Positions 1-60,562 of a stretch of DNA of 60,562 nt are shown piece by piece. The translations under genes and the position numbers were made by a program. The notes beneath the pieces are model-generated. The model ran no database searches. It was not told where the DNA came from and saw nothing but the letters and a program-made list of their open reading frames with translations. The stretch is taken from positions 1-60,562 of IMG/VR virus record IMGVR_UViG_3300032232_000510; one strand, 5' to 3'. Origin of the DNA: a virus. Lineage: Duplodnaviria > Caudoviricetes. Each line of letters opens with the position of its first letter. Positions within the stretch are counted from its first letter, which is position 1.

Positions 1-3000
1 ATAGTCTGGACAAAATCTTTAGCTGATGGGAGTCCTGCCGCAACGGCACGATTAACCAAGTCGCCAGTAAACACAGCGTAGTCGAGGTACTTACCAGTCA
101 CATCCCTGATTACGCCAATGGAGTTACGGACAGGCTGTTGCAAAACTTTAGGCAGAGCAGCAATTGTTTGTTGTACAAAACTTGGCGTAGGTGGAGCATT
201 TACTCCAAATTTAAAATAACTATTGCTAAACCTAGAATCAGATACCAACTGTACGTCAACAGGAAAGCCTTGAGACTCACCGGGGACAACTTGCCTACGG
301 AGTGACTCGTCGTACTGCCTCCGAACTTCCACATCACGAGCTTCAATTTCTCCGGAAACCATCTGATAAAGTTGCTTTTGAAATGTTTCCCTAGTAATAT
401 TTAAAGCGTTAAGCATGGCTTTTAATGCTGCTTTGGCTTCTTTGTCTGTGGTAAAAACACGGTCGAGCGCCGCCCGTTTTGCATCAGTTAAAGGCGCAGG
501 AGCCCCAGAAGGTAGCGGCTGTATGGCGTTATCTCTATCAAGCATCGCTTGCTTTTTGGCTTTAACCGCATCGCGGTATTTAACCATTGCTTCTTTAGCT
601 TCTGGAGGTGTATTAAATAAATCGGCAGAAGCCGCCCATTTAATTGCAACACTGGCGTTAAATACATCCATGTCAGCCGGATTTGCGCCTTTACCAAAAC
701 CTTCAAGTTCTTGAATTGCGTGTTGAATTTCATGCAGTAGCGTAGACATATCATCTACGTACTGACCCGACATTAATATTTGTTTTTTAGTTGGAATAAA
801 TGCAGCATTTCCCGGAGCAAGATCAGCATCGTATTCAATACTGTAGTTTGCAAGTTCAGGATACAACTTAAACAATTTAGGGTGATCCAAAATATTGCCT
901 AGTTTATGTGGCGTATCCATGCGTACGTTTCCACCGGACATTATTTTTTCAAAAGTAAATTTAGCATCTTTGTCAGAAATTTCAGTACGCCATTCTTTAT
1001 CTGCCCCGCGAATAAATCCTGTGTCAAACCAAATATCCGAACGCAATTCACCATTGGCGTCCATTAGTTTTGCAAGAACAAACCGGCTTTTTTGTTTGTC
1101 GGACATTCCAGCTTGTGTAAGCCCTTTAAGTCCCACAAAACCAAACTTTGCTTGTTTTTGCCCCGCTGTTTGTGCAATAGAAAGTTCCAGTTTTGCTGCG
1201 CCAAATGCCAAATTAACAATATCTTGAGCGGTTAAACCTTCAGTTTTAAAACCCAAACGGCGGATAGCGTTTTGAATTGCAGTCAGCAAAGTACGAAACC
1301 ATGCAGCTAGTGCCGCCGATTTTTTACCCGCAGCCGTTGGGTCAATACCTGATTGGACAGCTTCTTCAATAAAGTAAGCTAGCATTTCAGATGGGCGGTC
1401 TGCTGTAGGAGTATTAGCAGCTTCTACACGCGCTTGTGCAGCTTTAGCCAGTTTGGACTCCACCGAACCATTGTCAGTTTTGGCCCAAGTGTTAATTTGG
1501 GAAGTCAAACTGTCGTAAACAGATTTAGACAGTAGGTTTTCTAAACCTAAGTGTGCGCCTACTTCATGCATAAATTTAGCGCGGCCTTGACCTTGCTCTA
1601 TGCGGTTAGCAACTAAATAAGCTTTTCCGTTGGCGGCAACACCATAAGCTCCTTTACCAAACAATGCTTTACCAACAGCTTGAACTGAGGGGTTTGGATT
1701 ATTAAGGAGGTCGTTTACTGAATCAACAATAGTTAATTTACTACCAAGAACGTCGGCGCGTATAAACTCTTTTATGTCTTTTGTCAGTTCGGCTGCGGTG
1801 TATGGATTTTTAGCTACGCTGTCCGTACCAAACTGAAACTTTTCTTCTTTGCCCGTTAGAGTACGTCCGCCAGCCACATTGGTGGCATTTTTCTGCACGT
1901 CGGTGCGAGTTGTAGTTTCCGTCTTGGGCGTGAAGGTAGTACGAGTTAGTTCGTCCTTGCCGGATTTATTCTTGGCTACGTCACCAGTTAAAAACTCACC
2001 AATCAATTCTTGCTTGTCCGGAACAACAAACAACGCAGCACCGTCCATCTGGTTTAGGTTGTTGGCAACCAAGGAACCAAACGTGGCTTTGTCTACGTTG
2101 ATACAACCAAACGAGTAACGCGAATCAGCAGCGCCTTCTTTCTTGAGGGCTTCCAAACGCTGGGCAGCATCTTTTTCATTCGTCCATACGGAATGAAACA
2201 ACGTAACGCTGTACTCACCATCAATGGCTTTGTCCAACACAAACACTTTACCAAAGTCATATTCGCCAGCGGTACGTTTTTCGTTTGCACTGCGGGTAGC
2301 ATCACGTAGTCCCAAGGTAAATAAACCAGCAGGGGTAATACGGTTTTCAACTTTGTCGGTGTTGCCTTTGTAGAAGTCGCCTATGGTGCGGCCCACAAGG
2401 ACTTTCTTTTGTAAGAACAAAGAGCCATTGGGGTTGAAAATAAATAGCCGAGCATTCGGTTTATCCGTAATAACCATGAACTTGTTTTCAGCTATCAGTC
2501 GGTCTTTAATTGCTGGGTATAAAGTTTGGTATGCCTCTTGAGCCGCCGTGGACATATTTGCTTTAGCGGCTGCGGGTATGGTTGCTTTAACTTGCGTAGT
2601 TGTGGAAACAATTTGAGGTGTAACCACAATGACTTCGCTGTTTTGCGTCATCACACTTGGGTTGAATACCATAGCTACTGCCAAGACCCCAGTGTGGATA
2701 GCTTTAATGATGTCGCGGATAACCCCGGATACTGCCTGTGCGCCCTTAGTAGCGTATGCAGTTACATCGTTCTGGAGCTTGGTAAAGAAGTCAGACGTAC
2801 CGCGCTTAGCGTTGTAGTGATCTTCAAGGCGTTGAACTTGTGGTTCTGGCAGCGCAGCAAGCGGCTGTTCAAGGATTGCTTGTTGTTCCGGATTGATTTG
2901 CGTAGCTTCAGGATTGTCGGCAACTACTTCATCTACCGTTTGCTCAACATGTGCTTCTACTGCGGCGGGAGTAATGACTTCTACCGCTTCAGCAGTTCCA

Positions 3001-6000
3001 GTAGCAGCCGGTGTTGCCACTTTTTCGGCAGGGGCAGCTTTAACAGTCGCGCTAAGTATCGTGTTGGCAGCAGCAAGATTAGCAACCCCACGTTGTGCCA
3101 CATCCGCCCAGCGAGTTTTTTCATCAGCAGATAAAGTTTCATAAGCAGGCATTTGTGGGAACGTCTTTGCCAGATCGTTCCATTGCTCTTCTGAGCTTTT
3201 TACTTGCGTTTCGGCTGGAGCAGCTTTGGTTTTACGTGCGGTGGTAGTTTGGCCCCCTTGGGCGTTTCCTTGGCGAACTTCTCCGCCACCTTTGGATTGT
3301 TCTTGAACAGGTACGCTCGTTGCGCTTGGCTTTGAAACGGCATTGGTAGCTCCTACAGTTTCACCACGGGATTGAAGTTCCGCAGCAATTTTTCCGGACA
3401 ATTCCAGATTTTTTATCGACTGGGTATATGTACGCAGGACTTGCAAGTCACTGGTATCTAGTTTGGTTAAGTCGCGCCCAGCATCGTTCCAACGCTTACG
3501 GGCTTCAGCAGCAGTAGCTTGGGCAGCAGCAACTTCAGGTTTAACTTCCGACGGGGGAGCTTTTAGTGCGCTAAGTAGGGCCGCTGTTTTGCCCAACTCA
3601 TCATTAACTTTGAGCCGCAGTTCTTCAACAATTCCACGGGCATCACCCAAACTAATTTTTTCATTTTTAAGAGCAACTGTAGTTTGCCCAGCTTTTTCAG
3701 CAACAGCAATTTTTGCTTCAAGTTCATCAGCAGCTTGAGCTTGCTCGTACACCAGTTGAGTTTTGCCAGCAATGCGTTCTTCAGGGGATACGTACTCCGC
3801 TTCCAACGCATTAATTTCTTTCTGAACTTTTTCAGCGGTATCAAGGTCATCAGATTTTTCAGCCAAACTAAGCTGTTCGCGTAAACCTTCCAACTTGGCA
3901 GCAACTTCTTTGGTTTTTAGCTTTACGCCTTTTTCAGTTCGGTCAAGAACATTGCCTTGCGAACCACCTTGGCTATTAACGATGGCAAGACCAGCACCTT
4001 CCAAGTCTTGGTCAACAACGGCTTGATTTCCAGCTTGAGCAATTTGGTCATTAGCAAGAGAAGCTAAGCGTGTCTGCGTAGACAGTGCGCCCAGTAAAGT
4101 GCGAAGTTGGTCTTCAGTTCCGCCAACAGCAGCCAGTTTTTCTTTGACATTGGCCGGGCTTACGATTTGAACAACGCGGCCTCGACTGATACCGTGTTTA
4201 GTTGCAACTTCTGCATGGGGTAAGTTTTCTACTAACGCATCGTGCAAGATAGCAGTATCACGTTCACCAAAAGCCCGCACTAATAAACTTCGAGCAGCAG
4301 CAGCGTCTTGTTTAACCTGAGCAGCTTTTTCCGGAGCAAGTTCTGTTTGTACTCCAGAATCAGGAACAATCAACCCGTTATTGGAAACAGCAGCACCCAA
4401 AGTCCCACTAGGAACAACTCGAACTTTTTTGCCGTTAACAGTTTTAGTTACCGGCGCGGCTGTAGCGGTAGTTGTGCCGGAGGTTGCGGGCGCTTGTTGT
4501 CCTTGCGTTTCTGTTTGGATGGTTTGAGCGGTTTGAGAGGTTTGATTGCCACTTGGGGTTCCTGTTGCTGTAACTATAGGGGTAACTGATTGGCCGGGGG
4601 GAGTTGTAGAAATTGCAGCTTGAGCATTTGGGGCGTTAACTCCGGGGGCATTTCCACCCACGGTTCCGACGACAGGAGCAATTGATCCTGAAGGAGCCAG
4701 ATTTCCTTGAACGACAGGAGCCCCAGTTCCCACGCTTGCTGGAGTTCCGGCTGTGGGTGTAGTTGATGTGCCACGGGGACTCCTTGCTCGGATGATTGCG
4801 CCAATGGTATCAGTAGCAAACTTAAATTTGTTTTCGTACAGCGCGTTGAGGATTGGTTCCGCTTCTTCAGAAGTAGGGTCAATGCCCTTCTTTACCATAT
4901 AGTCGTAAATGTTACGCGACTTTTTAGTTGGCTTGATGCCTAGCGCGTTAAGGTCTTCGTCTGTCTTGCTATAAATTGACGGTGTAGTTGCGCCCGGTAC
5001 AGGCGTTGTTGCGCCCGGAGTTGCGCCAGCACTCACAGGTGTCGGTGCAGTTAAATCAATGGATGCTCCTGCCGCAGTTGGGGGGTTTGCACCTAGACTT
5101 GCATTGCCAGTTGAATCAACAATAATTGGATCGCTTGCAAGGCGGGTAGAACCATCAGGGAACGTAACGTACTGCCCAGCGTTCGGGTTATACGAAAGCC
5201 CCAAAGGGGGAGGGGGCGCGTTGTTATCTTTCTGAGTTAAATCAAAGCCGCCTTCTTGAGTACGTCTCCACCCACCAGCAGCACCACCAACAGCACCACC
5301 AAGGAATGCGCCGCCAATAGCAGATTCTTTGTAACGTGCCAAAGCTTCAGGAGACAAAAACTGAGCGTTGGGGTCAACCGCCATGCGACCACCTTGGTTA
5401 AGCATTTCTTGACCAGTTTCGCCAATTGATTCTTCTAAAGCAACGCGCCCAGCGTTGTAGCCTGCCCGAGTAAGCCCGCCTGTAAACCCTTTTAAGTTGT
5501 CTAGCGCAGCCATACCGCCACGAGCTACACCACCACGAGCAATAACCCCAGTTTCGCCAAGCGCGTTTAGCGCGGCGTACGGAACTCCATACAGTGCAGC
5601 GGAACCTAAATCCGTTGTGCCAGCTTGCTCACGTTGGTTTTGCAAAATATCTGCAACTGACGATGGGTAGGCCGCAGTAACCGCACCGCCAATTTGCCCA
5701 GCACCGAGTTGTCTGGTAGCAGCGGTTAACGCGCCGGTATCGCCAGCAGCCCTAGCAGCCGTAGCAGCAGCCCGAGTTCCCGACATCAGCCCACGAGCAG
5801 CCAGTCCACCAACCAAAGCTTCGCCAACATACGGTAAAGATTGGATGGCAAGCCCACCTACGTAACTGGGCAAGTCACCTACACCTTTTACTTGGTCAAA
5901 GCTATTAATTGCACCTTGGTTTGCGGCGCGTTCCATTGCGACGTTAGCCGAGAATTCGTTTGCAATCCGGTTTCTTTTAAAGAAGTCAGCGCCAGTAACT

Positions 6001-6218
6001 GCTTCACCCAAACCGTAAAGCCCAGCTTGATACTGGTCAGCCGAAGCCCCAAACCGTTTTGCCGTAGGGCCAGACGATGTTGGGTTGTATCCGTACCGGC
6101 CCGCTACGTCATTTACCGATTGACCTTTAGCTTCGGCAACCGCTTGTAGAAGTTGCTCGTCGTTTTTGTCGTCGGCAAAAGACCCAAGAGCGGAGCGAAG
6201 TTGAGCAATTGACGGCAT
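1..6218 (-). CDS. Giant polyvalent/internal virion (ejection) protein, N-terminal ~2070 aa; runs off the window edge
   Basis: Not in the ORF track. ATG at 6218 (MPSIAQLRSALGSF...) with AAGGAA upstream. Hand-translated segments are open in one frame, and every listed minus ORF in 1-6200 is in a different frame. Motifs: HGISRGRVVQI (~4170), RITPAGLF...FHSVW...SFGCINV (~2340-2095), FMHEVGAH (~1560), LLHEIQHAIQELEGF (~720). Confidence 0.85.
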   Translation of the reverse strand, partial: MPSIAQLRSALGSFADDKNDEQLLQAVAEAKGQSVNDVAGRYGYNPTSSGPTAKRFGASADQYQAGLYGLGEAVTGADFFKRNRIANEFSANVAMERAANQGAINSFDQVKGVGDLPSYVGGLAIQSLPYVGEALVGGLAARGLMSGTRAAATAARAAGDTGALTAATRQLGAGQIGGAVTAAYPSSVADILQNQREQAGTTDLGSAALYGVPYAALNALGETGVIARGGVARGGMAALDNLKGFTGGLTRAGYNAGRVALEESIGETGQEMLNQGGRMAVDPNAQFLSPEALARYKESAIGGAFLGGAVGGAAGGWRRTQEGGFDLTQKDNNAPPPPLGLSYNPNAGQYVTFPDGSTRLASDPIIVDSTGNASLGANPPTAAGASIDLTAPTPVSAGATPGATTPVPGATTPSIYSKTDEDLNALGIKPTKKSRNIYDYMVKKGIDPTSEEAEPILNALYENKFKFATDTIGAIIRARSPRGTSTTPTAGTPASVGTGAPVVQGNLAPSGSIAPVVGTVGGNAPGVNAPNAQAAISTTPPGQSVTPIVTATGTPSGNQTSQTAQTIQTETQGQQAPATSGTTTATAAPVTKTVNGKKVRVVPSGTLGAAVSNNGLIVPDSGVQTELAPEKAAQVKQDAAAARSLLVRAFGERDTAILHDALVENLPHAEVATKHGISRGRVVQIVSPANVKEKLAAVGGTEDQLRTLLGALSTQTRLASLANDQIAQAGNQAVVDQDLEGAGLAIVNSQGGSQGNVLDRTEKGVKLKTKEVAAKLEGLREQLSLAEKSDDLDTAEKVQKEINALEAEYVSPEERIAGKTQLVYEQAQAADELEAKIAVAEKAGQTTVALKNEKISLGDARGIVEELRLKVNDELGKTAALLSALKAPPSEVKPEVAAAQATAAEARKRWNDAGRDLTKLDTSDLQVLRTYTQSIKNLELSGKIAAELQSRGETVGATNAVSKPSATSVPVQEQSKGGGEVRQGNAQGGQTTTARKTKAAPAETQVKSSEEQWNDLAKTFPQMPAYETLSADEKTRWADVAQRGVANLAAANTILSATVKAAPAEKVATPAATGTAEAVEVITPAAVEAHVEQTVDEVVADNPEATQINPEQQAILEQPLAALPEPQVQRLEDHYNAKRGTSDFFTKLQNDVTAYATKGAQAVSGVIRDIIKAIHTGVLAVAMVFNPSVMTQNSEVIVVTPQIVSTTTQVKATIPAAAKANMSTAAQEAYQTLYPAIKDRLIAENKFMVITDKPNARLFIFNPNGSLFLQKKVLVGRTIGDFYKGNTDKVENRITPAGLFTLGLRDATRSANEKRTAGEYDFGKVFVLDKAIDGEYSVTLFHSVWTNEKDAAQRLEALKKEGAADSRYSFGCINVDKATFGSLVANNLNQMDGAALFVVPDKQELIGEFLTGDVAKNKSGKDELTRTTFTPKTETTTRTDVQKNATNVAGGRTLTGKEEKFQFGTDSVAKNPYTAAELTKDIKEFIRADVLGSKLTIVDSVNDLLNNPNPSVQAVGKALFGKGAYGVAANGKAYLVANRIEQGQGRAKFMHEVGAHLGLENLLSKSVYDSLTSQINTWAKTDNGSVESKLAKAAQARVEAANTPTADRPSEMLAYFIEEAVQSGIDPTAAGKKSAALAAWFRTLLTAIQNAIRRLGFKTEGLTAQDIVNLAFGAAKLELSIAQTAGQKQAKFGFVGLKGLTQAGMSDKQKSRFVLAKLMDANGELRSDIWFDTGFIRGADKEWRTEISDKDAKFTFEKIMSGGNVRMDTPHKLGNILDHPKLFKLYPELANYSIEYDADLAPGNAAFIPTKKQILMSGQYVDDMSTLLHEIQHAIQELEGFGKGANPADMDVFNASVAIKWAASADLFNTPPEAKEAMVKYRDAVKAKKQAMLDRDNAIQPLPSGAPAPLTDAKRAALDRVFTTDKEAKAALKAMLNALNITRETFQKQLYQMVSGEIEARDVEVRRQYDESLRRQVVPGESQGFPVDVQLVSDSRFSNSYFKFGVNAPPTPSFVQQTIAALPKVLQQPVRNSIGVIRDVTGKYLDYAVFTGDLVNRAVAAGLPSAKDFVQT

Positions 6219-6248
6219 ATTGGTTCCTTTAACCTACGAACTTATATG

Positions 6249-8219
6249 TTACTTTAGTTTATACCGAACTGCTTGATTATTTTCATCCACCGTTAAAGGT
6301 TGACCGTTAGCAATTTTAGTTTTTAAATACAAAACGTAATTGTCTCTTGCCGTATTTAAACCTTGCCCAGCCATTTCAACAAAATTAGGAACCGATGGTG
6401 GCGGTAGGAAAGGTTGTCCAGTTACAGAACTAACTCCCCCTCGCGACCTGTTTGGGTCGGGCCCTAAATTTGTGGTAACGGGTTGTTGAGTAGTTAAACC
6501 AGCAGTAGCGGCGGGAGCATCCGGTTTTTTCTTTGCTCTGTCATTTACCGCAGCAGCATCGCTTTGCGCATCTAAATCAACTTTATTCTTCTTAATGTAA
6601 ATATTAATAATTTCATCGTGTGCGTATATAGCAGCAGTATCTTCCGTAAACATTTGCTGTTTCCCCTTGGAGTCTGTTCCCGGCATAGGTGTTCCAACTA
6701 GTTGTTCAACGCGCTTTGCTATTTTGGTAGGGTCAAACGCCGACTGCGGAATAAAAGCATCTCCGGTTAACCGCAAACTAAAAGTTTCAGGCTCCCCCGT
6801 TTGTTTGTTTTGACGCAAGCCACTTATAACTTGAATTCGTTCGCCGCTTTTAGGGTCTATCTGAAAACCCATTTGCGAACTAATAATCTTATCTGGGTTT
6901 TTTGCAGCTTGATTTCTTGCAGTTTCGTAATACGCTCTTTGGGCTTTGTCAGTGTCTAGTTTTGAAATTGTTAAAGCTGCGCCTAAAGGATCACCTTTTA
7001 TGCGGCCCTGTACAGTTGCAACAACCTCATCAAGGCTTCTGTAGTTTCCTTCATACCCCGGCAATGGTTTATTGCCATACATAATTTTAAAACCAGTTTT
7101 AGCATCACCAACAATTGTTGGGCTTACTCCATCATTTGCATCCGGATCAAACTTGTCCGCAAGAAATTTGTTAAGCGTGGGTGTTCCGCCAGCAGCAGCA
7201 GCACCAAGTCCTTCTAAGGTTGTTTTAATTTTTGCGGCGGCAGTTTTTTCATCAAGATTTAATTGCCCTAAAGCTAAATTCATTACGTGGGCTGGGTCAG
7301 CGTCATGTGTTTTAGCAAAAGCATACATTTCTTGCGCAGAAGGAGTCTTACCTGCATTTGCAGCATCAGCCATGAATGCAGAAAAAGCTTTGCTTGCGTT
7401 TAAGTTACCTTGTTTTAACTTAATATTCATTTCAGTTTCAGTAAGTCCAAGCGCGGCAGCTTGATTTGTTAAAGCTTGACCAGTTAATTTCCCCGGAAAT
7501 AGCGAAAGTTCATTTTTTTGATTTTTAATACCTAACTCTGCGCTTTCTAAAGTCAACGGATTCATAACTTTGGCTTGGTTTACGGCTAACTGTCTTTCTT
7601 CTAAAGTCAACGGATGCAGTTCCCTTTGACGCTGGGCTTCTTCCATGCGTAAATCATTTTGCGTAATTTCATTGCGCATACGCAAAGCACCGGCAGGGTC
7701 GCGGCCACCAATAACGTCAGCCATAGCACCGTACCGCAAGCTGTTCATCTTTTCCGGAGTCAACGCACTAGGGTCGTATTGTTGGCCTAAGAAAGACGCA
7801 CGAGGGGCTACACCTTGTTGAGCTTGAATTGTTTGATCCATGCCGGGTGCGCCGCGATCTGCGCCCATTCCTCGTTGCGAAAGCCCGTAGTTAAAACCTT
7901 GCACTTGCCCCGCAGCACTGACATTTGGATTAACAACCAAACCGCGCCGAGCCATTTCTGCTTGAGCGCCAGCTTCGTCGTATACAGCCCCACCACGTTC
8001 AGCGCCCATTCCCGGAGCGGCAGTGTATTGCTGCACAACTTGCTGTTGTTGGTCATACAAACCTTGAAGCCTAGCTAAGTCATCTGGGGAGTACGTTTGC
8101 TCTGACTGCGCATCCTGAATGGCTTTAATTCGGCGTTGCTCGTCAGCTTGCTGATAAGCGTTGTACGCACGTTCACCAATACCATAGCCTATAGCCAGAC
8201 CTTTTGCAATATCAGCCAT
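6249..8219 (-). CDS. Putative internal virion/ejection protein
   Basis: 656 aa, Ala/Gln/Gly-rich and helical; lies between the small ejection-like protein and the giant protein, as in podovirus gene order. Confidence 0.55.
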   Translation of the reverse strand: MADIAKGLAIGYGIGERAYNAYQQADEQRRIKAIQDAQSEQTYSPDDLARLQGLYDQQQQVVQQYTAAPGMGAERGGAVYDEAGAQAEMARRGLVVNPNVSAAGQVQGFNYGLSQRGMGADRGAPGMDQTIQAQQGVAPRASFLGQQYDPSALTPEKMNSLRYGAMADVIGGRDPAGALRMRNEITQNDLRMEEAQRQRELHPLTLEERQLAVNQAKVMNPLTLESAELGIKNQKNELSLFPGKLTGQALTNQAAALGLTETEMNIKLKQGNLNASKAFSAFMADAANAGKTPSAQEMYAFAKTHDADPAHVMNLALGQLNLDEKTAAAKIKTTLEGLGAAAAGGTPTLNKFLADKFDPDANDGVSPTIVGDAKTGFKIMYGNKPLPGYEGNYRSLDEVVATVQGRIKGDPLGAALTISKLDTDKAQRAYYETARNQAAKNPDKIISSQMGFQIDPKSGERIQVISGLRQNKQTGEPETFSLRLTGDAFIPQSAFDPTKIAKRVEQLVGTPMPGTDSKGKQQMFTEDTAAIYAHDEIINIYIKKNKVDLDAQSDAAAVNDRAKKKPDAPAATAGLTTQQPVTTNLGPDPNRSRGGVSSVTGQPFLPPPSVPNFVEMAGQGLNTARDNYVLYLKTKIANGQPLTVDENNQAVRYKLK

Positions 8220-8221
8220 GA

Positions 8222-9181
8222 TTAAACCTCCAACATACGAAGGCCCAGACCGTCGTAATTGACTGCCTTAAAGCCGTTAGGCATGGTGTGAACCATGTCG
8301 GGATATTTTTTCTCAACGTCATCAGCCATAACACCAATAAACTGTTTATCAGGAGTTTTAATGTAGTTAAATTTGTAGATGGGAAGTTGAGTACGCTCGT
8401 GAGTACCTACCCGCTCAATATTTTCTTTAAGGCGGCGGTCAGAAAACGGTATTTTTCCAATAAGCGCGGGGGCTACTGCACCAAAAATAGTTGCAAACGG
8501 ATCAGCTTTGCTTTCAGCCGTGTTGTACTGACTAGTCTGGTTATTGAGGATGTTTCCATACGTCCCGCTTGCTTGGTTAAGCCCAGTCATAAACTGATTG
8601 CCGCCAGCCATAGATGTGCCCGCCCCAGCAGTGCCCGCGTTAGTAGCTCCTTGATATGCAGCAGTCGAAGCGCCAGCAAGATTACGTCCAAGGCCCGCAG
8701 CATCAAGCTTACGGGCGTAACCCATTTGTTCAGCTTGGAATCGTGAACCAGTCATAGCATTTGCCCGCGATGCAGCAAGACCTAAAGCATTTTGGTTTTG
8801 CAAGGCCATTGCCGCACCTGAGTTGGGGTTAATACCACGAGCAGCCGCCGCACGGGATGCCATATCACTATTAAGCCCAAAAGCTTTAGCCGAAGCGGCA
8901 GCAGCATCACGCGCTAAATTTTCACGATAGTCAACAGTAGCAAACCTATTTGCGTCGGCAACAAGCCCTTGTTCAAGCGGCCTAAAAGTTTCGGTTTGAT
9001 ACCTGTAGTAATCTTGCCCTTGATCCATTTGCTGTTTTTGAGCAGCAATTTGCTGATTAGCAACGGCAGTAAGAGTCGGTTTTAATTCGGCATATTGCTT
9101 TTCAGCAAAATCTTGTTGCCGTTCCCCAAGTCGAGTCATCGGGCCGTAGTCCGGTGGTGGTGGTGACGATTTACCGCCCAT
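8222..9181 (-). CDS. Putative ejection protein with C-terminal intramolecular chaperone/autocleavage (peptidase S74-like) domain
   Basis: Ala/Gly/Gln-rich body followed by SDRRLKENI...IYKFNY...IGVMADDVEK...GFKAVNY. Confidence 0.7.
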   Translation of the reverse strand: MGGKSSPPPPDYGPMTRLGERQQDFAEKQYAELKPTLTAVANQQIAAQKQQMDQGQDYYRYQTETFRPLEQGLVADANRFATVDYRENLARDAAAASAKAFGLNSDMASRAAAARGINPNSGAAMALQNQNALGLAASRANAMTGSRFQAEQMGYARKLDAAGLGRNLAGASTAAYQGATNAGTAGAGTSMAGGNQFMTGLNQASGTYGNILNNQTSQYNTAESKADPFATIFGAVAPALIGKIPFSDRRLKENIERVGTHERTQLPIYKFNYIKTPDKQFIGVMADDVEKKYPDMVHTMPNGFKAVNYDGLGLRMLEV

Positions 9182-9184
9182 AAT

Positions 9185-9601
9185 TTACTCCTTACGCAAC
9201 CACCGACAATCGGTAGGCCACAAAACAAGAACGTGCATATCAGCGCCGGGAGCGCCATCTTTCATTACAAACTCTTCCACAAAACCAAGGTGTTTATCAA
9301 ACGCCAAGATGTGGGGTTCATTACTGGGAACCATACCTGTTAGTCTTTTTAGTTTACAGTGGTTGAATGCGTAATCACATACCGCTCGGAACAACGGAAT
9401 GATTAGTTTCGTGTGTCGCGTTATAGCTATATGACATGTTGCATTTGCTCCGTTGAAGTTGTTCACCACGACTCCGGCTATGACTTCGCCTTTGTCTACT
9501 ACACCCATTGCGTAAAAGGAACCCCAATCGGCTACTTGGTTAACCTGCGAAGCGACCCATTGGCCTATAAGTTCGCGTTGGTCAAAGACAAGTTCTGCCA
9601 T
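9185..9601 (-). CDS. GNAT-like acetyltransferase (T7 gp13-like position)
   Basis: Likely start MAELVFDQ at 9601; YAFNHCKLKRLTGMVPSNEPHILAFDKHLGFVEE resembles a RimJ-type GNAT. Confidence 0.7.
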   Translation of the reverse strand: MAELVFDQRELIGQWVASQVNQVADWGSFYAMGVVDKGEVIAGVVVNNFNGANATCHIAITRHTKLIIPLFRAVCDYAFNHCKLKRLTGMVPSNEPHILAFDKHLGFVEEFVMKDGAPGADMHVLVLWPTDCRWLRKE

Positions 9602-9615
9602 GTCCGTATTATGAC

Positions 9616-10158
9616 TTATTGTGGGGAAGTCGGCCAGACAAAAAAATAGCACAGCCCCTGCGCAGTAACCGTCTTTGCCTGCGCGCCGAGCTTGAAATGC
9701 CTGAAAGGCTCCAGCGTCAGAGCGCCTATAAAGCAAACGCCGTGGGCCACAAACAGGTTCTCTCCAGCGCTTATAGTATGCGTTTCCCCCTCGTTGAGGC
9801 AAATAATCTGAACGTGATCTACGCGGGCCAAGGGTTTCCCCGCCACGCGGATGCACCAAATTTCGCAGCCATCAGGGCTTTCCCTGCGATACTGCCCTGC
9901 CAAAACAGTCCCGGTGTCAAGACTGGAAATCCAACCGGGCTCACGATTGGGCAAAGCCCCTGTAGGATCGACCATACTGCCGCTGACAACAACGTGACGA
10001 CTGGAAAGACTGTTTACCGGCACCGCATCAGGGAAGTCCAACATCTGCCAATATCCGGGCCAATAAATGCTTTGAGTTAAGCTAAGCTGCTCTGCAACCA
10101 ATGACCTAGTTGCTCGTTTGGAGCGCTCTTCACTCGTGATGGTAAAACTTTGAGCCAT
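9616..10158 (-). CDS. Hypothetical protein (tail-fibre associated, possibly cupin-like beta fold)
   Basis: 180-aa ORF translationally coupled to the upstream gene at 10158. Confidence 0.5.
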   Translation of the reverse strand: MAQSFTITSEERSKRATRSLVAEQLSLTQSIYWPGYWQMLDFPDAVPVNSLSSRHVVVSGSMVDPTGALPNREPGWISSLDTGTVLAGQYRRESPDGCEIWCIRVAGKPLARVDHVQIICLNEGETHTISAGENLFVAHGVCFIGALTLEPFRHFKLGAQAKTVTAQGLCYFFVWPTSPQ

Positions 10159-10715
10159 TAAATAATCTCCTGCCCGAGGTATTCATCCTGTATGTCGTCG
10201 TGAACAACATAGGCACCGGGCTTTGTCGGCCATTGGATTAAGAAAGGGTTAGCTTGAGTAGAAATATCCCGCAGCGCTTGGCGGTAAGACTGCCACACCC
10301 CGTGCATTGCGCCGAGACGGGCTGGGGCCGATGCCGTATCCGTCCAGTCGGATTCACCAAGCAGCCGGTCTCGGATTGATCGTACTAATACCCACTGTGT
10401 CTCGGTGCGCTGTTCGGAACTGGTAACTCTGTTTTCACCGGGAACCCAGTAAACCCAGCCTTCAGGAGGTGCGTCGTCAAATGTACTTGCGTTGTGAACC
10501 TGATTTGTATTTGTCGGGTTGTACCAAGAATGACCTCGGTAATCGACGGCAGCAACCCACTGGCCCAGCACCCAACGCCAACGCTCCAAAAAGCCAAGTG
10601 TTGTTTCGGGGATCGCGTCTTCTACAACTTGATCTCTGTTTAGGTCGGACACTAATGAGGCGAGAACCCCCCCTGCAAGGAACCCATGAGTGTCAATTGT
10701 GTTGTAGTAGCTCAT
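10158..10715 (-). CDS. Tail fibre assembly chaperone
   Basis: RSIRDRLLGESDWT...WQSYRQALRDI...QWPTKP motif; directly downstream of a fibre gene. Confidence 0.8.
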   Translation of the reverse strand: MSYYNTIDTHGFLAGGVLASLVSDLNRDQVVEDAIPETTLGFLERWRWVLGQWVAAVDYRGHSWYNPTNTNQVHNASTFDDAPPEGWVYWVPGENRVTSSEQRTETQWVLVRSIRDRLLGESDWTDTASAPARLGAMHGVWQSYRQALRDISTQANPFLIQWPTKPGAYVVHDDIQDEYLGQEII

Positions 10716-12922
10716 AGTTTATAAATAATCCATGTAGCTGTTGGAAGCCTAAACGAAGTAAAAGTGCCAGAAGTCAATACCATTGCGTAATCAAAAACCA
10801 TAGAGACTCTTCCATTATTTGAGTACGACCCACTATTTGAATAAGTACGAACCGGCATTGCGTGCGCTCTTAGAAAAAAATCGTATGTTGATCCCGCTGA
10901 ACCAGTCCAGTCTCTAACCGTTCCACCACTAAAGTAAGCTGCAACGTAGTACGGCTGGTTGCCGCTAGAGTCATAAGTGGTTAGGTCAACGGGTAGATTT
11001 ACTGTGTAAACGACTTGATTAATTTGCCCTCGAAAAATTGTTCCCGCAGGATAGTAAGTAAACGTGGGAACTTTGCCGGAATTATCAGTAACTCCTCCAC
11101 TAATAACTTCTGTCGGGTCAAGCGTCCCATACTCCAAAACAGTTCTGCGTTTTATATCAACCAAGTCAGCTTCGACAGTGCCATTGGACAATGCTTTAAA
11201 TCGAACAAAGCTGCTGGAATCGGGAGTGGTTGCAAAAGTACTAGCCGTTACGGCTCCATTGAAAGAACCAGAAGTGGCGGTAACCGCCCCAGTAAATGAT
11301 CCGCTGCTAGCGTAAACCGCCCCGGTGAAAGAACCAGAAGTAGCGGTAACCGCCCCAGTAAATGTTCCCGCTGTAGCATACACAGTACCGCGAACCGTAA
11401 CATTTTGAAATTCAGCAGCCCCGGTAGCATCTAGGTTGAACCCGGATGTGCCGCTTACATAGTTGCTAGATCGAAGGTATTGCCCTGTAGCAATATTTCC
11501 AGCAAGCAATTTATCTACTGTTAGGTTGGCTATTTTTGCGTTGTCAACTGCTAAATCTGCAATCTTGGCAGTAGAAATGGTTCCGTTTTTTATAAACGCA
11601 GTGTCCATATAAACACCAGCAGGAACTGCTACACCACCTATTGTGGTTGCCGATGCTTGAACAACAAAGGGAATTATTTCTGTAGCGGTTCCGCCTCCAC
11701 TTGCTGGCGGTGCAATATAAAACCTATCTGCCCGTATGGCAAACTCACTAGAGGTAGAAGTAGATGCCAACCCAAACCCGCTAACTTTTCCACCTACATC
11801 CAGTTTAATTGTGTACTGTGCGTAAAAATTACTGTTGTCCGTGGCTTGAGCAACAAATTTTTGTTCAAGGCTAGCCGTAACTCCACCAGAACTTACAGTA
11901 ACTTGTTTAACCGCGCTGGCTAAAGGAAGTCCGACATTCCATGTACCCCCGGCAGCTACACATGTTTGTTTTGTCGTGTAGTCATTAGGGACTCCACCAA
12001 TACTGCAATATCCAATTTTGGCTTCTTCAACGTTAACTACTCTTGCGTATGTTGCCGGTAACCCAGTAGTAGCGTCATTAACTTGAGCTTGAACTAAACC
12101 AACATTAGTTGTAAGTACGCCATCTGCGGTAACTCTAGCTGTCCGTTCGTTATATAAAAGCCCAACCGCAAGTTGATTTACATCTGTTCCGCCGTAGCTA
12201 CCCCGCATTTGAACAGCAAGCGCTTCGCGTGTAGTGGCTTCCGCGCTATCTGCGGTTGTTCGCGCATTTGATTCGACAAGAATCGCCGCATTACGCGCCG
12301 TTGCTTCATCCAAAATTCTAGCTGCTACGCTATTTGCTAAATTAGAAGGGCCGTCAATTAAATTAATCCTGCTAGCTAAAGTTGCGTATAGCTGGGTTTC
12401 AGTAATCTGTCCGGTTAAAACGCCAAGCAGATATGACACATCAGTGCCGGTAGTAGCAGAAGTCCCAGTACTGGAGTTGTACGCACTTTTTTCATCCAGC
12501 CCATTTACAAATCTAATCCAGTAATACCTAGTTTTATTTGGCCCTAAAGGGTCAACGTAAGTTGCTCCGGGTGCTGAACCTAGTAATACCGCTACGCCTA
12601 TATTGTTAGTATCAGCAGCCCAAACTTCGGTATACGCGTGTCCATAATACGCAGGAGCATCCCACGCAAGAATGACGTTTTGGATAGCCGCAGTAGCGGT
12701 AAGTCCTGTCGGCAAAGGTGGAGCTAATAAAGTTTCTGTAGCTGTAGAAACTGTACTAACGACTGGAGCAACAAGAGTACCTGCGGCATTGGTAGTTACC
12801 ACTCCAGTATTCAATAAATCTGCCAGTTTAACTAAATCATTATTAATTACTTCCCGGATACGATCCGTAAAAGTTCGTAAATCTTTAGGTATATCTGACG
12901 ATATTGTTGGGAGTTTAGACAC
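10712..12922 (-). CDS. Tail fibre/host-specificity protein (Fn3-like plus DUF1983-like region)
   Basis: GTG start at 12922 with GGAGG upstream; Fn3-like PTGLTA...LAWD...YYWIRFVN; YTIKLDVGGKVSGFGLAS...FAIRADRF...AFIKNGTI; 11-aa ATSGSFTGAVT repeats. Confidence 0.75.
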   Translation of the reverse strand: MSKLPTISSDIPKDLRTFTDRIREVINNDLVKLADLLNTGVVTTNAAGTLVAPVVSTVSTATETLLAPPLPTGLTATAAIQNVILAWDAPAYYGHAYTEVWAADTNNIGVAVLLGSAPGATYVDPLGPNKTRYYWIRFVNGLDEKSAYNSSTGTSATTGTDVSYLLGVLTGQITETQLYATLASRINLIDGPSNLANSVAARILDEATARNAAILVESNARTTADSAEATTREALAVQMRGSYGGTDVNQLAVGLLYNERTARVTADGVLTTNVGLVQAQVNDATTGLPATYARVVNVEEAKIGYCSIGGVPNDYTTKQTCVAAGGTWNVGLPLASAVKQVTVSSGGVTASLEQKFVAQATDNSNFYAQYTIKLDVGGKVSGFGLASTSTSSEFAIRADRFYIAPPASGGGTATEIIPFVVQASATTIGGVAVPAGVYMDTAFIKNGTISTAKIADLAVDNAKIANLTVDKLLAGNIATGQYLRSSNYVSGTSGFNLDATGAAEFQNVTVRGTVYATAGTFTGAVTATSGSFTGAVYASSGSFTGAVTATSGSFNGAVTASTFATTPDSSSFVRFKALSNGTVEADLVDIKRRTVLEYGTLDPTEVISGGVTDNSGKVPTFTYYPAGTIFRGQINQVVYTVNLPVDLTTYDSSGNQPYYVAAYFSGGTVRDWTGSAGSTYDFFLRAHAMPVRTYSNSGSYSNNGRVSMVFDYAMVLTSGTFTSFRLPTATWIIYKL

Positions 12923-14843: not shown

Positions 14844-14846
14844 GGC

Positions 14847-15323
14847 TCATCCTAAAAATAGAACACGTTCGTCAATGCGACGGTTTTGTAGCCCCTTAAG
14901 GATTTTACCCCCACCCATGCAATACTTCAAGAACTCATCCGCAGCACCCGCTTTATCGCCCCGTAACAGTTTCTGGCGAAGCGTAGAACGCTGGAGTGTC
15001 CCAAGGCCGCAGTTAAAAGAAAAGCTGACAAGCCCATCAAACATACCTTGTGTAAGAGGGACAGGACAGAACTGCTCGACTCCGCGCTCAAATCTAGCCA
15101 AATCTGCTGCAAGTATTCCATTGACTTCTTCCATGCTAAATTTTCTATCATCCTCTGGGCGCAAGAAAAACGCATCCCGCTGCTCAAGTTTTAACTTACC
15201 TTGTTCCGGATAAAGTACATGCCCGACTCCGATTGTCCAAAGGCGGGCAGGGCAGCGATACGCACGTTGGCGAGTTCCCTCGTGGTGCTTGATGATCTCC
15301 AGTGCTTTGGCTGATACTTTCAT
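14847..15323 (-). CDS. Endolysin, GH24 phage lysozyme
   Basis: HEGTRQRAYRCPARLWTIGVGH (E-x8-C-x5-T), FDGLVSFSFNCG, GLQNRRIDE; likely start MKVSAK at 15323. Confidence 0.9.
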   Translation of the reverse strand: MKVSAKALEIIKHHEGTRQRAYRCPARLWTIGVGHVLYPEQGKLKLEQRDAFFLRPEDDRKFSMEEVNGILAADLARFERGVEQFCPVPLTQGMFDGLVSFSFNCGLGTLQRSTLRQKLLRGDKAGAADEFLKYCMGGGKILKGLQNRRIDERVLFLG

Positions 15324-15475
15324 TTGCGTCTCACCGTTTGAACACAACCAACTTTGTATCCCAGATCACGCCATTCCTGAGCCGCTTTTTGACAAGCGGA
15401 CTCGTACTCAAAGTACCCAACGACTAGAACTGAGTTCATATGTATACCTGTAACAAGCACAAGTGTCCAGATCAT
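15320..15475 (-). CDS. Small hypothetical protein, hydrophobic N-terminus and two Cys
   Basis: MIWTLVLVTG...; ATGA overlaps with both neighbours. Confidence 0.55.
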   Translation of the reverse strand: MIWTLVLVTGIHMNSVLVVGYFEYESACQKAAQEWRDLGYKVGCVQTVRRK

Positions 15476-15987: not shown

Positions 15988-15990
15988 GGT

Positions 15991-16942: not shown

Positions 16943-16986
16943 GGTAGCGTCCTACAAAAAGGCTAAAACCAAAGTATATACGGAAT

Positions 16987-17972: not shown

Positions 17973-17980
17973 TAACGCTC

Positions 17981-18810: not shown

Positions 18811-18818
18811 AGCAGTCC

Positions 18819-57970: not shown

Positions 57971-58231
57971 TTACCATTTCACCTTATTAGCCCAGTAGGC
58001 CGCAGACATTGGCCCTTTTGCAATGTTCTTGGCATGTCGTGCCTTGAACGCATCGTTTCGAGCAGACCCATCAGGACTGCCCTTAGCCCCCTGTTGACCG
58101 AAGTGAATTGTCTTCACCTGATCGCCAACCTTTGCCACTACAACATGGCTTTTTTTAGGATTGTTGGGAGTAGCCTTGGGTTTGTTATACCCCGATACTC
58201 CGACTCGCTCTAGCCTTGGGTCTTTGCTCAT
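57971..58231 (-). CDS. Small basic phage protein
   Basis: GYNKPKATP...KSHVVVAK...IHFGQQG...FKARH...SAAYWANKVKW. Confidence 0.75.
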   Translation of the reverse strand: MSKDPRLERVGVSGYNKPKATPNNPKKSHVVVAKVGDQVKTIHFGQQGAKGSPDGSARNDAFKARHAKNIAKGPMSAAYWANKVKW

Positions 58232-60562
58232 AATTCAGCCTCTTCCATTACGGCACGTTTGTTTGCTTTAGTAAATTGAACACCGCCAGCGGTATCTTTT
58301 TCGCGTTGCCGTTGAGCTTGGGGAGCCTTAAGCAGCGTCGAAAGAGGTTGCCTAGTGTATCCTTTTTCCATACGAACTTGTTGCAGTTTCATCCACGCTT
58401 CCCGAGCCTTTGACGCATCTTCGGAATCGCCTTCGCGCATTGCCCTGACGTAATCTTTTGTGATTTGCTGTGCGCGGTCTTTAAAACGCTGGTCTTGATC
58501 TCGAATAACTTGCTGGCGCTCATAAACTCGAGTTTGCTCTACCGGGCTAATACCAATAGCTTGCAGCGCTGTATCAACCCCACTAACTTCTTCAGGAGGT
58601 AAAACAACATCCCCGTTACGCCGGGTCATACCTTCGGTAGAAATCCGGTAGGCTTTCATTGCGTCCCCAACACCCTTGGGCATCATGCGCTCTAAACCTT
58701 TATACCAATCACCGGACATCATCAGTCCCAATCCATCCACTTGGTTGGCGATCATACCTAAAGAAGCCCCACCGACCAAAGTTCCAAACGTCTGGGCCAA
58801 CCCGGCTTTAGTCGTTACATCCGCATTGTTGAACGGCAATACCGACAACATATTTCCCGCTCCAACTTTTCCTGAAATATCCATTCCAGCGAGAGTGGGC
58901 GCACCCCTCAAAACAAGGTTTGATGTACCTTCGTCTCCAATGGCTTTACGAATTTCTTCTTCAACATCGTACTTGTCATCCTCGTCACTAAACATTTTGC
59001 CGATAGCCCATGCTATTGCGGAATAACCCGGAAGACCCATAACCCCAGCCAAAGTCGCAGTGTGGCCGAGCGAGTAGCCCAAAGCCTTCAAAGCCGCAGC
59101 GCGTTCTCGACCTTGCAAAGCATCTTTAATTAGCTTGGCATGGAAAGCCAACTGGATAAGCTGAAACTTGCGGAACTGCAACATAACCTTGCCGACTGGG
59201 TTGTTGAATGCCCGTGGCGCGTTAAACGCGGTGTAGTCACCGTGGGTGTCCGTCAGAATTTGGTCAGCGTAATCTAGTGCTTTAGTCTTGTCATTTGTTT
59301 TGGCTAACTCTAGACGATAGGCTGCAATGCCGCTCGACAAACGATTGATAGACTCAACTTTCTGAACAGCCAAGCGCATGGCTTTATCCACGGAATTAAG
59401 TTTTTCCCGAACGTAGCCTTCACCTTCAACTCGGAACTCACCAATCTCGCTATCCAATCCAATATCAATCTTGCCGCGATTGACCAACTCTTTGATTGCA
59501 TCACGCACATCCGCAGGTACTTTGCTGAAGTCAAACTGTTGTTTAAGCAGTTTGCTGCCCTTCATCACATCACCCAGTTCCGTATACGCTTTAAACAACG
59601 CACCCGAAGCTTCTGTGTAGCCGTGACGCCCTGCCATAGAAGGCACAGTCATAATCCAAGGCTGGGTTAAGTTCTGTAGGTAGTACGCAGGGCTTGTTGC
59701 CAAGAAATACAACGACGAAACTCTAGTCAGTTTGTTAGTCCAAGGGTTTTGATGGTAGTCCATCGACTGAATATACCGACGCGATAACTCATTAAAGATT
59801 TCAGATTTACGTTCGCGGTTTCCAGTCTTAGCGTCGTTACGCATTTTCTGAAGTGATTTTTGCACCTGTGGGTTGTACTGCACCGAAGCCATCAACTGAG
59901 CATCTGCGCGGCCTTGTTGGGCAAACGACTGCACCATATCAACTTCACCGGCTACCCCACGACGGCGCATTTCGGATTTACGAGCGCTGTTTTCTGCCAA
60001 GGCTTCCAAGTACATTTGGCTGATAACACCAAGCAGTTTGGACGACGATTTATCTCCGGCTAAATTTTCGGTTGCGGCTGCTGCTTCCACACGGGAACGC
60101 ATACTAGCAAGTTCGCGCAAAGCACTGGCCCCGCCATATAGACTATTTACAGCATCATCGCGCTCAAGTATCTGCACATCTTGGAAGAAACCTTGGTCTT
60201 GAAGTTGCGACTGCAAAGTACGAGCGTCCCACTTACCATCAGTAAAACTCACATGGTAATGGTTTGGGTCAGACTCCAACTCTTTAATGCGCTTGGTATT
60301 TTTAGCCAACTCCGCTTGTATGTACTCAGTAGATTTTGCAACAACCGCATTGCTGCCAGTACGTTTAATTGGAGCATAGGGTAAACCCTCACGAACTTTA
60401 AACAAAGTTTTGAACCGCTTGAGCGTGGCAGCTTTTTCAGATTCCAGTTTTGCCTTAACCACAAGGTCGCCCGCATCTTGAGCCGCCTTAATCATGGCAT
60501 CGTACTCAGTTACAGCAGAGTCCAGTACAACTTTCTTTTTCTGGGCCAGCACAGTTGCACCG
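58228..60562 (-). CDS. C-terminal part of the giant polyvalent protein (PLxRFG-like region)
   Basis: Open to the window end and in frame with the ORF leaving position 1; PYAPIKRTG, THGDY, QFRKFQ motifs. Confidence 0.8.
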   Translation of the reverse strand, partial: GATVLAQKKKVVLDSAVTEYDAMIKAAQDAGDLVVKAKLESEKAATLKRFKTLFKVREGLPYAPIKRTGSNAVVAKSTEYIQAELAKNTKRIKELESDPNHYHVSFTDGKWDARTLQSQLQDQGFFQDVQILERDDAVNSLYGGASALRELASMRSRVEAAAATENLAGDKSSSKLLGVISQMYLEALAENSARKSEMRRRGVAGEVDMVQSFAQQGRADAQLMASVQYNPQVQKSLQKMRNDAKTGNRERKSEIFNELSRRYIQSMDYHQNPWTNKLTRVSSLYFLATSPAYYLQNLTQPWIMTVPSMAGRHGYTEASGALFKAYTELGDVMKGSKLLKQQFDFSKVPADVRDAIKELVNRGKIDIGLDSEIGEFRVEGEGYVREKLNSVDKAMRLAVQKVESINRLSSGIAAYRLELAKTNDKTKALDYADQILTDTHGDYTAFNAPRAFNNPVGKVMLQFRKFQLIQLAFHAKLIKDALQGRERAAALKALGYSLGHTATLAGVMGLPGYSAIAWAIGKMFSDEDDKYDVEEEIRKAIGDEGTSNLVLRGAPTLAGMDISGKVGAGNMLSVLPFNNADVTTKAGLAQTFGTLVGGASLGMIANQVDGLGLMMSGDWYKGLERMMPKGVGDAMKAYRISTEGMTRRNGDVVLPPEEVSGVDTALQAIGISPVEQTRVYERQQVIRDQDQRFKDRAQQITKDYVRAMREGDSEDASKAREAWMKLQQVRMEKGYTRQPLSTLLKAPQAQRQREKDTAGGVQFTKANKRAVMEEAEL

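Follow-up and report, generated by a model that had tools for sequence, protein, structure and literature searches.

By what chemistry does a phage particle get across the cell wall? Glycosidases and transglycosylases are known to serve this end, as are a few amidases or metallo-endopeptidases, and the locus described here raises the question whether a Cys enzyme of the L,D-transpeptidase type belongs on this list. The window analysed is the whole of the IMG/VR virus record IMGVR_UViG_3300032232_000510 (60,562 nucleotides; Caudoviricetes), in which an earlier note, made from the letters alone, had read a YkuD-type L,D-transpeptidase domain embedded in a phage ejection protein between positions 1960 and 2720. 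We find a module with a predicted YkuD fold in the middle of a protein of 2850 residues, with active-site residues that are nearly invariant among its relatives, and we propose that it may act by hydrolysis on peptidoglycan stems during entry.

A YkuD-fold module in the middle of a giant protein

The record presents a complete, circularly permuted genome whose cut lies inside its largest gene: it is the whole virus record, with a CheckV completeness of 100% and no terminal repeat, and joining its ends yields one minus-strand frame of 2850 amino acids. All coordinates given below for this giant open reading frame (ORF) are on the minus strand. Its N-terminal 2072 codons (P0001; 3..6218, an open frame of 2077 aa) exit the record at the left end, its C-terminal 777 codons and stop (58228..60561, open at the 5' side) continue in the same frame at the right end, and the codon that joins the two pieces consists of bases 2, 1 and 60562. 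Uncut giant ORFs from two related loci align across this junction, that of L003 over residues 2047-2850 with 71% identity and that of L002 over residues 2065-2850 with 35%. Because the ORF resumes at the right end of the record, the YkuD module lies mid-protein in a 2850-aa product; the domain is thus embedded in a larger protein, as had been proposed, but in one that is bigger than had been noted. As the ORF crosses the ends of the record, an automated gene caller given the linear record would return two truncated proteins. The peptides on which the earlier note relied are all present in the single minus-strand frame of ORF 3..6218, with the hydrophobic stretch IRDIIKAIHTGVLAVAMVFNPS at residue 1167 of the giant protein, FMVITDKPNARLFIF at residue 1247, RITPAGLF at residue 1293, LFHSVW at 1340 and SFGCINV at 1369, and the codon read there as Cys (2105-2103) is indeed tgt, Cys1372.

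The module occupies residues 1215-1417 (1968..2576) and is modelled by AlphaFold as an N-terminal helix followed by a beta-sandwich catalytic domain. A search with the YkuD profile had been suggested as a first check, and PF03734 matches at or just above its cut-off of 23.4 bits: 23.4 bits for the whole protein (residues 1249-1377, E 9.9e-5), 24.4 bits for the isolated 211-aa piece and, above the cut-off, 24.8 bits (E 1.1e-6) in a six-frame search of the genome. Membership of the family is therefore marginal when the whole protein is scored, its score being exactly at the cut-off. In A1, a 37-sequence alignment of the YkuD domain, 24 of the 37 members match PF03734 individually at E<=0.01 (best 3.4e-10), and the A1 profile finds 7o21 (E 0.0015), 4xzz (E 0.12) and 3zg4 (E 0.41) among PDB sequences. 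In the profile alignment to 7o21, TPEG stands opposite TPAG, and 'WLHA' opposite the His strand. An hhalign comparison of A1 with the single sequence of E. coli LdtB, which is weak (19 columns, probability 9%) and is used solely to show which Cys pairs with which, sets DSRYSFGCINV against GLRVSHGCVRL. Neighbours in the ESM Atlas include a cluster named L,D-transpeptidase family protein (0.91) and a cluster in which 44% of members carry PF03734 (0.90). A single-sequence search of the PDB returned no YkuD entry but NHL-repeat and V-ATPase rows only, which are spurious, and the NHL/TRIM rows in the A1 profile search were rejected as spurious too, having matched the strand ADKPNGKLFVF.

The AlphaFold2 model built on A1 has a predicted local distance difference test score (pLDDT) of 92.5 and a predicted template modelling score of 0.89, and a Foldseek search of the PDB gives nothing but L,D-transpeptidases down to rank 17 (E 1.5e-4 to 8.1e-3; probability 0.89-1.00), the matches shown past rank 17 having a probability of at most 0.18. 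VIA-align, run on Foldseek's candidates (995 chains), gave 83 chains at Z>=8 with a top Z of 11.6; judged by their titles, 48 of the 50 entries shown have the L,D-transpeptidase fold, the exceptions being 1zat and 4xxt. The best row is Csd6 (Z 11.6, 135 residues aligned, root-mean-square deviation (rmsd) 3.3), followed by B. subtilis YkuD (11.3, 115 aligned, rmsd 2.8), M. smegmatis Ldt (11.3), Ldtfm (11.3), LdtMt1 (11.2) and Pgp2 (11.1, 135 residues). AlphaFold, Foldseek and VIA-align thus agree on an ErfK/YbiS-type beta-sandwich for the modelled module, the outcome that the earlier note had looked for in such a check, and we consider it almost certain that the domain has the YkuD, or L,D-transpeptidase, fold.

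Nearly invariant active-site residues in a non-canonical setting

Conservation was counted over 150 rows, the query and 149 relatives (an ankyrin false hit, P0143, was dropped), and the counts are biased because every relative was found through the YkuD domain itself. The putative catalytic His1342, in an F-H-S context (2193..2195) and aligned to 'lHa' of 7o21, is present in 150/150 rows, and so is Arg1354 (2157..2159), which lies on a helix (model residues 137-145 in AlphaFold) within a family-specific insertion between His and Cys. The active-site motif S-F-G-C-I-N, S1369-N1374 (2097..2114, with Cys1372 at 2103-2105), fits the pattern [S/T]-x-G-C-h-[N/R], and in non-gap rows Cys1372 is kept in 147/148, Gly1371 in 147/148, Asn1374 in 146/148 and Ser1369 in 143/148. 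The T-P-A-G motif, T1295-G1298 (2325..2336), is similarly preserved (T 148/148, P 142/148, A 133/148 and G 148/148 non-gap rows), as is Asp1252-Lys1253 (145/145). His and Cys are thus conserved, as had been supposed, and in the aligned subset the active-site residues stay invariant or nearly so in relatives down to about 23% identity.

This conservation is concentrated on the module. When 19 whole giants (17-36% identity to P0001) were aligned, 20 of the 22 invariant columns fell within residues 1215-1400. Module identity to the related loci L002 and L042 is 64% and 63%, compared with 45-46% for the N-terminal regions and 35-37% for the C-terminal ones; in L004 the module is the only segment that aligns, and in L003 module (70%) and C-terminus (71%) are equal. 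These alignments show a YkuD domain that appears to be far more constrained than the remainder of the giant protein.

The published L,D-transpeptidase motif is H-x(14-17)-[S/T]HGChN, and the phage module departs from it in two ways: (i), the spacing from His to Cys is 30 residues, where E. coli LdtB has 16, and it is 28-30 in 144/147 rows; (ii), the residue before Gly-Cys is Phe and not the second His of S-H-G-C, the 148 non-gap rows having F in 89, Y in 34, H in 9 and W in 7, hence Phe or Tyr in 123/148. The second His is not universal in the YkuD family, and its replacement affects canonicity, not fold membership. Neither a LysM nor a PG_binding domain was detected in a Pfam scan of P0001. 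Given the long spacer with its Arg helix, the Phe in place of His and the lack of LysM or PG_binding, the module is, on these sequence criteria, a distinct YkuD sub-family; the His...S-x-G-C-h-N arrangement first read from the letters is therefore right in its residues but not fully canonical in its spacing or in its second His.

The same departures would suit a catalytically dead module that merely docks the protein on peptidoglycan. However, the invariance or near-invariance of His, Cys, Asn and Arg across deep divergence is what catalysis predicts and mere binding does not, and we give the idea of a dead wall-binding domain hardly any credence. The module is probably a catalytically active Cys/His enzyme.

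Distribution among uncultured phages

Relatives were found by an exhaustive HMMER scan of 1.84 billion representative proteins (clusters at 50% identity), which returned 298 at E<=1e-3, 120 at <=1e-10 and 75 at <=1e-30. Among the best 150 of the 298 representatives, 109 have at least 2000 aa and 19 have fewer than 700. In 42/42 related IMG/VR loci the module lies inside a giant ORF; 34 of these ORFs are complete (2171-4452 aa), the other 8 being cut by a contig end, and in none of the 34 is the module a separate small gene. A length-matched homologue search yielded 6 fragments on short contigs and is uninformative on stand-alone forms. At the weak end of the best-150 list, a few short bacterial proteins with signal peptides share the long His-Cys spacer, and one short bacterial relative is in a cluster named L,D-transpeptidase of Chlorobium. 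Among the related giants, P0006 reaches 6443 aa.

Deposited phage genomes are a different matter. The 253-aa region singled out in the earlier note gave no tblastn match at E<=1e-3 in 50,697 phage records, positions 1-20000 of the window gave no megablast match either, and PHROGs has no family for the YkuD module. Pattern scans of species-representative genomes, within whose reach are only close relatives, gave 96 matches with the single protein and 58 with alignment A2, none of them confirmed, and brought no prophage copy to light. The nearest cultured phages by portal protein are Rhizobium phages (35% identity), whose giant protein carries PLxRFG and an inorganic pyrophosphatase (InPase) domain and no YkuD. 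In Rhizobium phage RHph_TM29, the giant (L046 6496-13482, annotated as hypothetical) matches the polyvalent-type InPase family PF18823 at E 6.3e-48 and PLxRFG at E 3.7e-95.

The carrier: a mosaic protein, plausibly ejected

The giant protein combines several domains in one polypeptide. Its N-terminal region is rich in Gly and Ala, with viral hypothetical proteins as the nearest atlas clusters, and a weak helix-turn-helix match (Sigma70_r4 / KorA-like; residues 646-688, 4155..4283) has Pfam E-values of 3.8e-4 and 1.2e-3, both under the cut-offs. Immediately upstream of the enzyme, AlphaFold predicts a four-helix unit at residues ~1110-1186 (2661..2891), conserved in alignment A2, whose helices span 11-22, 26-36, 43-59 and 69-86 of the 326-aa model with a pLDDT of 82-93 over the block; a low-confidence linker (residues 1187-1206, 2601..2660; model residues 88-107, pLDDT <50) connects it to the YkuD module. 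The fourth helix (2655-2720) is the stretch that the earlier note had described as resembling a signal peptide or transmembrane segment. This description fares less well: the stretch is conserved in the family (IRDIIKAIHxGVLxxAMIFNP) and is the sole segment of the 2850 residues above 1.4 on the Kyte-Doolittle scale over 19 residues, but it peaks at only 1.56, the same stretch has a median of 1.44 in 139 homologues (31/139 above 1.6), and AlphaFold makes it the last of the four helices that precede the disordered linker. With its position at residue 1167 of 2850 the stretch is no signal peptide, and we rejected its reading as a transmembrane anchor on account of the low hydropathy; membrane insertion of this helix after ejection is possible.

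Downstream of the module come LPD23 (PF18838; residues 1715-1754, 957..1076; Pfam E 2e-7, 31.1 bits against a cut-off of 27) and, at residue 1829 (720..734), HEIQH, the sole HExxH that a motif scan finds in the protein, inside a match to phrog_13543 (residues 1663-1846, E 2.8e-15). No Pfam metallopeptidase family matches P0001. A further motif, 'HEVGAH' (residues ~1497-1502, ~1713-1730), aligns with an HExGH column pattern that is conserved in related giants (A3 consensus); with one extra residue in this phage, this second zincin-like site may be altered. The C-terminal 777 aa hold a PLxRFG domain (NF032893 'tail-700'; 58291..60048), matched over profile positions 86-672 of 681 with an NCBIfam E of 1.6e-95 (321 bits against a cut-off of 100). 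Across 19 related giants the cargo varies (LPD38 in 4/19, LPD39 in 3/19, ART-PolyVal in 1/19, FtsK_gamma in 1/19, zincin matches to ATLF in 2/19), and none of the 12 Pfam families found in them is another wall hydrolase. With LPD23, YkuD and PLxRFG in one polypeptide, the giant is by its domain content a polyvalent protein, with mosaic cargo in its relatives.

This architecture bears on whether the Cys/His site might act on protein, as a processing peptidase for the polyvalent protein or in an attack on a host protein. Embedded peptidases typically process polyvalent proteins, according to Iyer et al., 2017 (PMC5512222), and, in a protein whose other parts are mosaic, the module alone is constant. 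Against this, the giant has its own HExxH candidate, related giants can carry the ATLF zincin-like matches just mentioned, and the module retains the TPxG and S-x-G-C-h-N substrate-site residues of peptidoglycan enzymes. Moreover, to our knowledge all characterised YkuD-fold enzymes act on stem peptides that contain a D-centre. We regard a proteolytic role as very doubtful.

Is the carrier an ejection protein? The phage is a podovirus of ~60 kb whose genome has terminase, portal, major head protein and tail-fibre genes as well as a phrog_511 internal virion protein. The giant gene follows the tail-fibre genes, and no gene of the late minus-strand block comes after it. A tblastn search with the C-terminal piece reached 55 phage records, including 28 of the Pseudomonas F116/H66 type, 6 of Klebsiella Lastavirus, 5 of the Erwinia PEp14 type and 4 of Rhizobium, in which the annotations read PLxRFG, 'DarB-like', methylase, helicase, transglycosylase or structural protein. 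The C-terminus also aligns to F116, Vibrio douglas 12A4 and Sinorhizobium PBC5. Its alignment to H66 gp60 is weak (22.8% identity, E 1e-6, over 60% of the piece), and the matches to some other records are stronger; for H66_0060 (AGC34669.1), annotated as a 'structural protein', the record gives verification in the virion by mass spectrometry. In Hardies et al., 2016 (PMC4819975), H66 gp60, F116 p60, the Vibrio douglas 12A4 protein and Sinorhizobium PBC5 p23 are placed in an extended family of T7 internal virion protein D (IVP-D; gp16), with an E of 8e-19 in a comparison of profile hidden Markov models between joined sets that links the H66 gp60 set to T7 IVP-D, and a figure legend there mentions muralytic domains in IVP-D proteins. 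Given the PLxRFG domain and the link to H66 gp60, the label of ejection protein that the earlier note had used is reasonable by homology, and we consider the carrier plausibly an internal virion protein of the ejection type. Virion evidence from the 'DarB-like' giants of Bcep22 and JC1 was not transferred, because Bcep22 gp75 has no PLxRFG match. Polyvalent proteins in general are predicted to be injected with the DNA, peptidoglycan attack being one theme among them (Iyer et al., 2017, main text).

A proposed role in entry and its rivals

The proposed mechanism builds on YkuD chemistry. In this fold a Cys attacks the bond between meso-diaminopimelic acid (mDAP) and D-Ala in a tetrapeptide stem to form an acyl-enzyme. 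Either an amine resolves this intermediate, giving a 3-3 cross-link, protein attachment or D-amino-acid exchange, or water does so, which makes the enzyme an L,D-carboxypeptidase; YkuD relatives also remove tethers. We hypothesize, with a probability of roughly 0.55 for the whole chain, that the capsid contains the giant protein and releases it together with the DNA, that its YkuD module refolds in the periplasm, and that it hydrolyses or trims peptidoglycan at the mDAP position during entry. The module would attack the meso-DAP(3)-X bond of the stems via an acyl-Cys1372 intermediate, which would most likely be resolved by water, making it an L,D-carboxypeptidase/endopeptidase or a remover of outer-membrane tethers from mDAP. 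Such hydrolysis could loosen the wall, or the links between wall and outer membrane, where the ejection conduit crosses, the YkuD module taking the place of the lytic transglycosylase of T7-type internal proteins. A hydrolytic role is favoured because the particle must pass the wall, for which bond breaking is useful, and because no virion protein of this genome carries a transglycosylase (no SLT domain was found anywhere in the genome); we therefore rank hydrolysis above the opening, resealing or anchoring by transpeptidation that was first imagined. Similarity to Csd6, Pgp2 and 7o21, in structure or by profile, fits hydrolysis without deciding the matter.

Several points weigh against this reading. 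As to the domain, the whole-protein Pfam score lies exactly at its cut-off, YkuD is detected in 3/19 whole-protein scans of giants at E<=1e-3, the spacer is long, Phe replaces the second His, and the conservation counts carry the bias mentioned above. As to the virion, the alignment with H66 gp60 is weak, and Bcep22 gp75, whose relative JC1 gp69 was found in virions, is without PLxRFG. The pattern scan of 185,579 species-representative genomes confirmed no copy and gave no host clue. As to the chemistry, computation does not tell hydrolase from transferase, the top VIA-align rows, L,D-carboxypeptidases and true transpeptidases alike, being tied within 1 Z; an L,D-carboxypeptidase by itself would leave the mesh unopened.

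The nearest alternative is a true transferase, in which an amine resolves the acyl-enzyme to make 3-3 cross-links at the entry site, as repair or resealing, or, where the amine belongs to the phage protein or to a host envelope protein, to pin the conduit covalently to the sacculus by way of mDAP. The fold and motif are common to the true transpeptidases LdtMt2, Ldtfm, LdtA and YcbB, and the flexible linker that tethers the module to the conserved helical unit would suit an anchoring device; members of the YkuD family attach Lpp or beta-barrel proteins to mDAP, which is a precedent for protein acceptors. Yet building cross-links is no help to a particle crossing the wall, no acceptor feature was identified, and, without being decisive, the structural ties have L,D-carboxypeptidases at the top (Csd6 Z 11.6, Pgp2 11.1) and the best profile matches are 7o21 and 4xzz rather than cross-linking enzymes. 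We regard a transferase as unlikely. In its more specific form, a transpeptidase delivered by the virion would draw on host tetrapeptide donors and stitch an ejection or envelope protein to meso-DAP, or re-cross-link the wall at the conduit; this seems quite unlikely. If true, phage DNA delivery would include a step of covalent docking or repair that is sensitive to carbapenems and copper.

The protein might also not be ejected at all but be made late and act inside the cell, in wall remodelling, as a lysis accessory or against superinfection. The gene is late, YkuD is among the phage lytic-protein domains in the PhaLP table, and BFVD has YkuD-like folds in proteins named endolysin or lysin. 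However, a 2850-aa protein would have to be exported with no signal peptide and no convincing transmembrane segment, its C-terminal domain is typical of a virion-verified protein class, the module sits inside giants in 34/34 complete ORFs, and the genome has a dedicated lysozyme gene. The latter encodes a T4-type lysozyme of 166 aa (14847-15347, minus strand; Pfam Phage_lysozyme E 3.9e-33; phrog_7 endolysin), and with this separate gene present the YkuD module is not the lysis enzyme; nor does it resemble an endolysin, a small late protein acting with a holin, being embedded in so large an ORF. An intracellular role is accordingly improbable. The 166-aa lysozyme itself could be an endolysin or a split-off virion lysozyme: its gene end sits 4 bases before the start of the phrog_511 gene (12915-14843, minus strand), directly upstream of it, and the phrog_511 match covers positions 319-861 only of the 862-position profile. 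No holin or spanin was identified in the genome.

Relation to known systems

Hydrolysis by ejected YkuD modules would combine elements that are known separately, namely the YkuD fold with its chemistry, and muralytic modules in internal virion or polyvalent proteins. The bacterial L,D-transpeptidases (PF03734, ErfK-YbiS-YcfS-YnhG), among them YkuD, Ldtfm, LdtMt1/2, LdtB, YcbB and V. cholerae LdtA, resemble the phage module in fold (VIA Z 9.5-11.3, rmsd 2.1-3.5 over 111-127 residues) and in the TPxG, His and S-x-G-C-h-N elements. In contrast, the phage module has just 14-20% identity to them, carries the 28-30 spacer, the Arg helix and Phe/Tyr for His, is without signal peptide, lipobox, LysM or PG_binding, and is embedded at residue ~1215 of 2850. 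Csd6 (4xzz, H. pylori) and Pgp2 (6xj6/6xj7, C. jejuni) provide the top structural row and the longest alignments (135 residues), and 7o21 and 4xzz are the best profile matches. We take Csd6, Pgp2 and 7o21 to be L,D-carboxypeptidases, 7o21 presumably being Bdellovibrio Bd1075 (its PDB listing reads 'Uncharacterized conserved'); as such they show that the YkuD fold can act as a hydrolase. They are bacterial cell-shape enzymes with an extra NTF2-like domain, and we know of no phage context for them.

The group of T7 gp16-class proteins and H66 gp60-F116 likewise has a large protein that ends the tail-gene block and a PLxRFG C-terminus. The muralytic domains of IVP-D proteins that Hardies et al., 2016 name are of the glycosidase/transglycosylase type, with one D,D-endopeptidase and no L,D-type Cys enzyme, and cultured PLxRFG members carry methylase, helicase, InPase or transglycosylase cargo, none in the 50,697 phage records having the YkuD module. 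Among polyvalent proteins (Iyer et al., 2017), the giant mosaic here has LPD23, and its relatives LPD38, LPD39 and ART-PolyVal; the wall-directed domains named in that main text are lysozyme, SpoIID-like, DD-peptidase and zeta-kinase, while 'YkuD' and 'transpeptidase' have 0 occurrences in it, although its supplementary domain tables may list YkuD. YkuD domains in phages are themselves not new: the PhaLP table has YkuD in 10 phage lytic proteins, a gut-phage endolysin with YkuD has a catalogue mention, and BFVD holds a giant protein of 1445 aa already labelled 'L,D-TPase catalytic domain-containing protein [Podoviridae sp.]' (BFVD/UniProt), a 'Large polyvalent protein associated domain-containing protein' (TMq 0.77, 27% identity) and an 'L,D-carboxypeptidase/transpeptidase [uncultured phage cr116_1]'. 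These PhaLP and BFVD entries are automatic labels or catalogue entries, and the literature searched, subscription journals not covered, holds no paper that assays phage YkuD domains or discusses them for entry, in line with the earlier note, which had taken this entry mechanism as not known to be described. An L,D-type Cys enzyme class inside an internal virion protein thus appears to be undescribed.

Such an enzyme would add a chemistry aimed at the mDAP position, the site also of 3-3 cross-links and of tethers to the outer membrane. Nor is the module an isolated case: it occurs in 298 clusters and, in the rows counted, its catalytic residues are fixed. If active, it would open a step of phage entry to drug-like compounds (carbapenems, copper), provide wall analysis or enzybiotics with a new class of enzyme, and mark a lineage of uncultured ~60 kb podoviruses.

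Neighbouring genes

Other genes of the window belong to the late minus-strand block or to an early plus-strand block. The early block encodes a family-A DNA polymerase, an SNF2 helicase, a PD-(D/E)XK nuclease and proteins with DUF927 and DUF2201. The DUF927 protein (1007 aa; 54645-57668, plus strand; E 1.7e-22) is probably a replication protein of the primase/helicase type, and a protein at 41929-43032 (plus strand) combines a DUF2201_N putative metallopeptidase with VWA-like DUF2201 (E 1.9e-45 and 2.3e-19). No tRNAs were found in the genome. In the late structural block, two adjacent ORFs (17382-17972 and 17981-18574, minus strand) match 2-oxoglutarate-Fe(II) oxygenases (phrog_61 E 5.5e-46; PF13640 E 1.4e-12), and amid the tail-fibre genes lies an acyl-CoA N-acyltransferase-like gene (9185-9859, minus strand; phrog_4470 E 5.7e-24); in Bcep22 and RHph_TM29, too, an N-acyltransferase gene is found near the giant gene.

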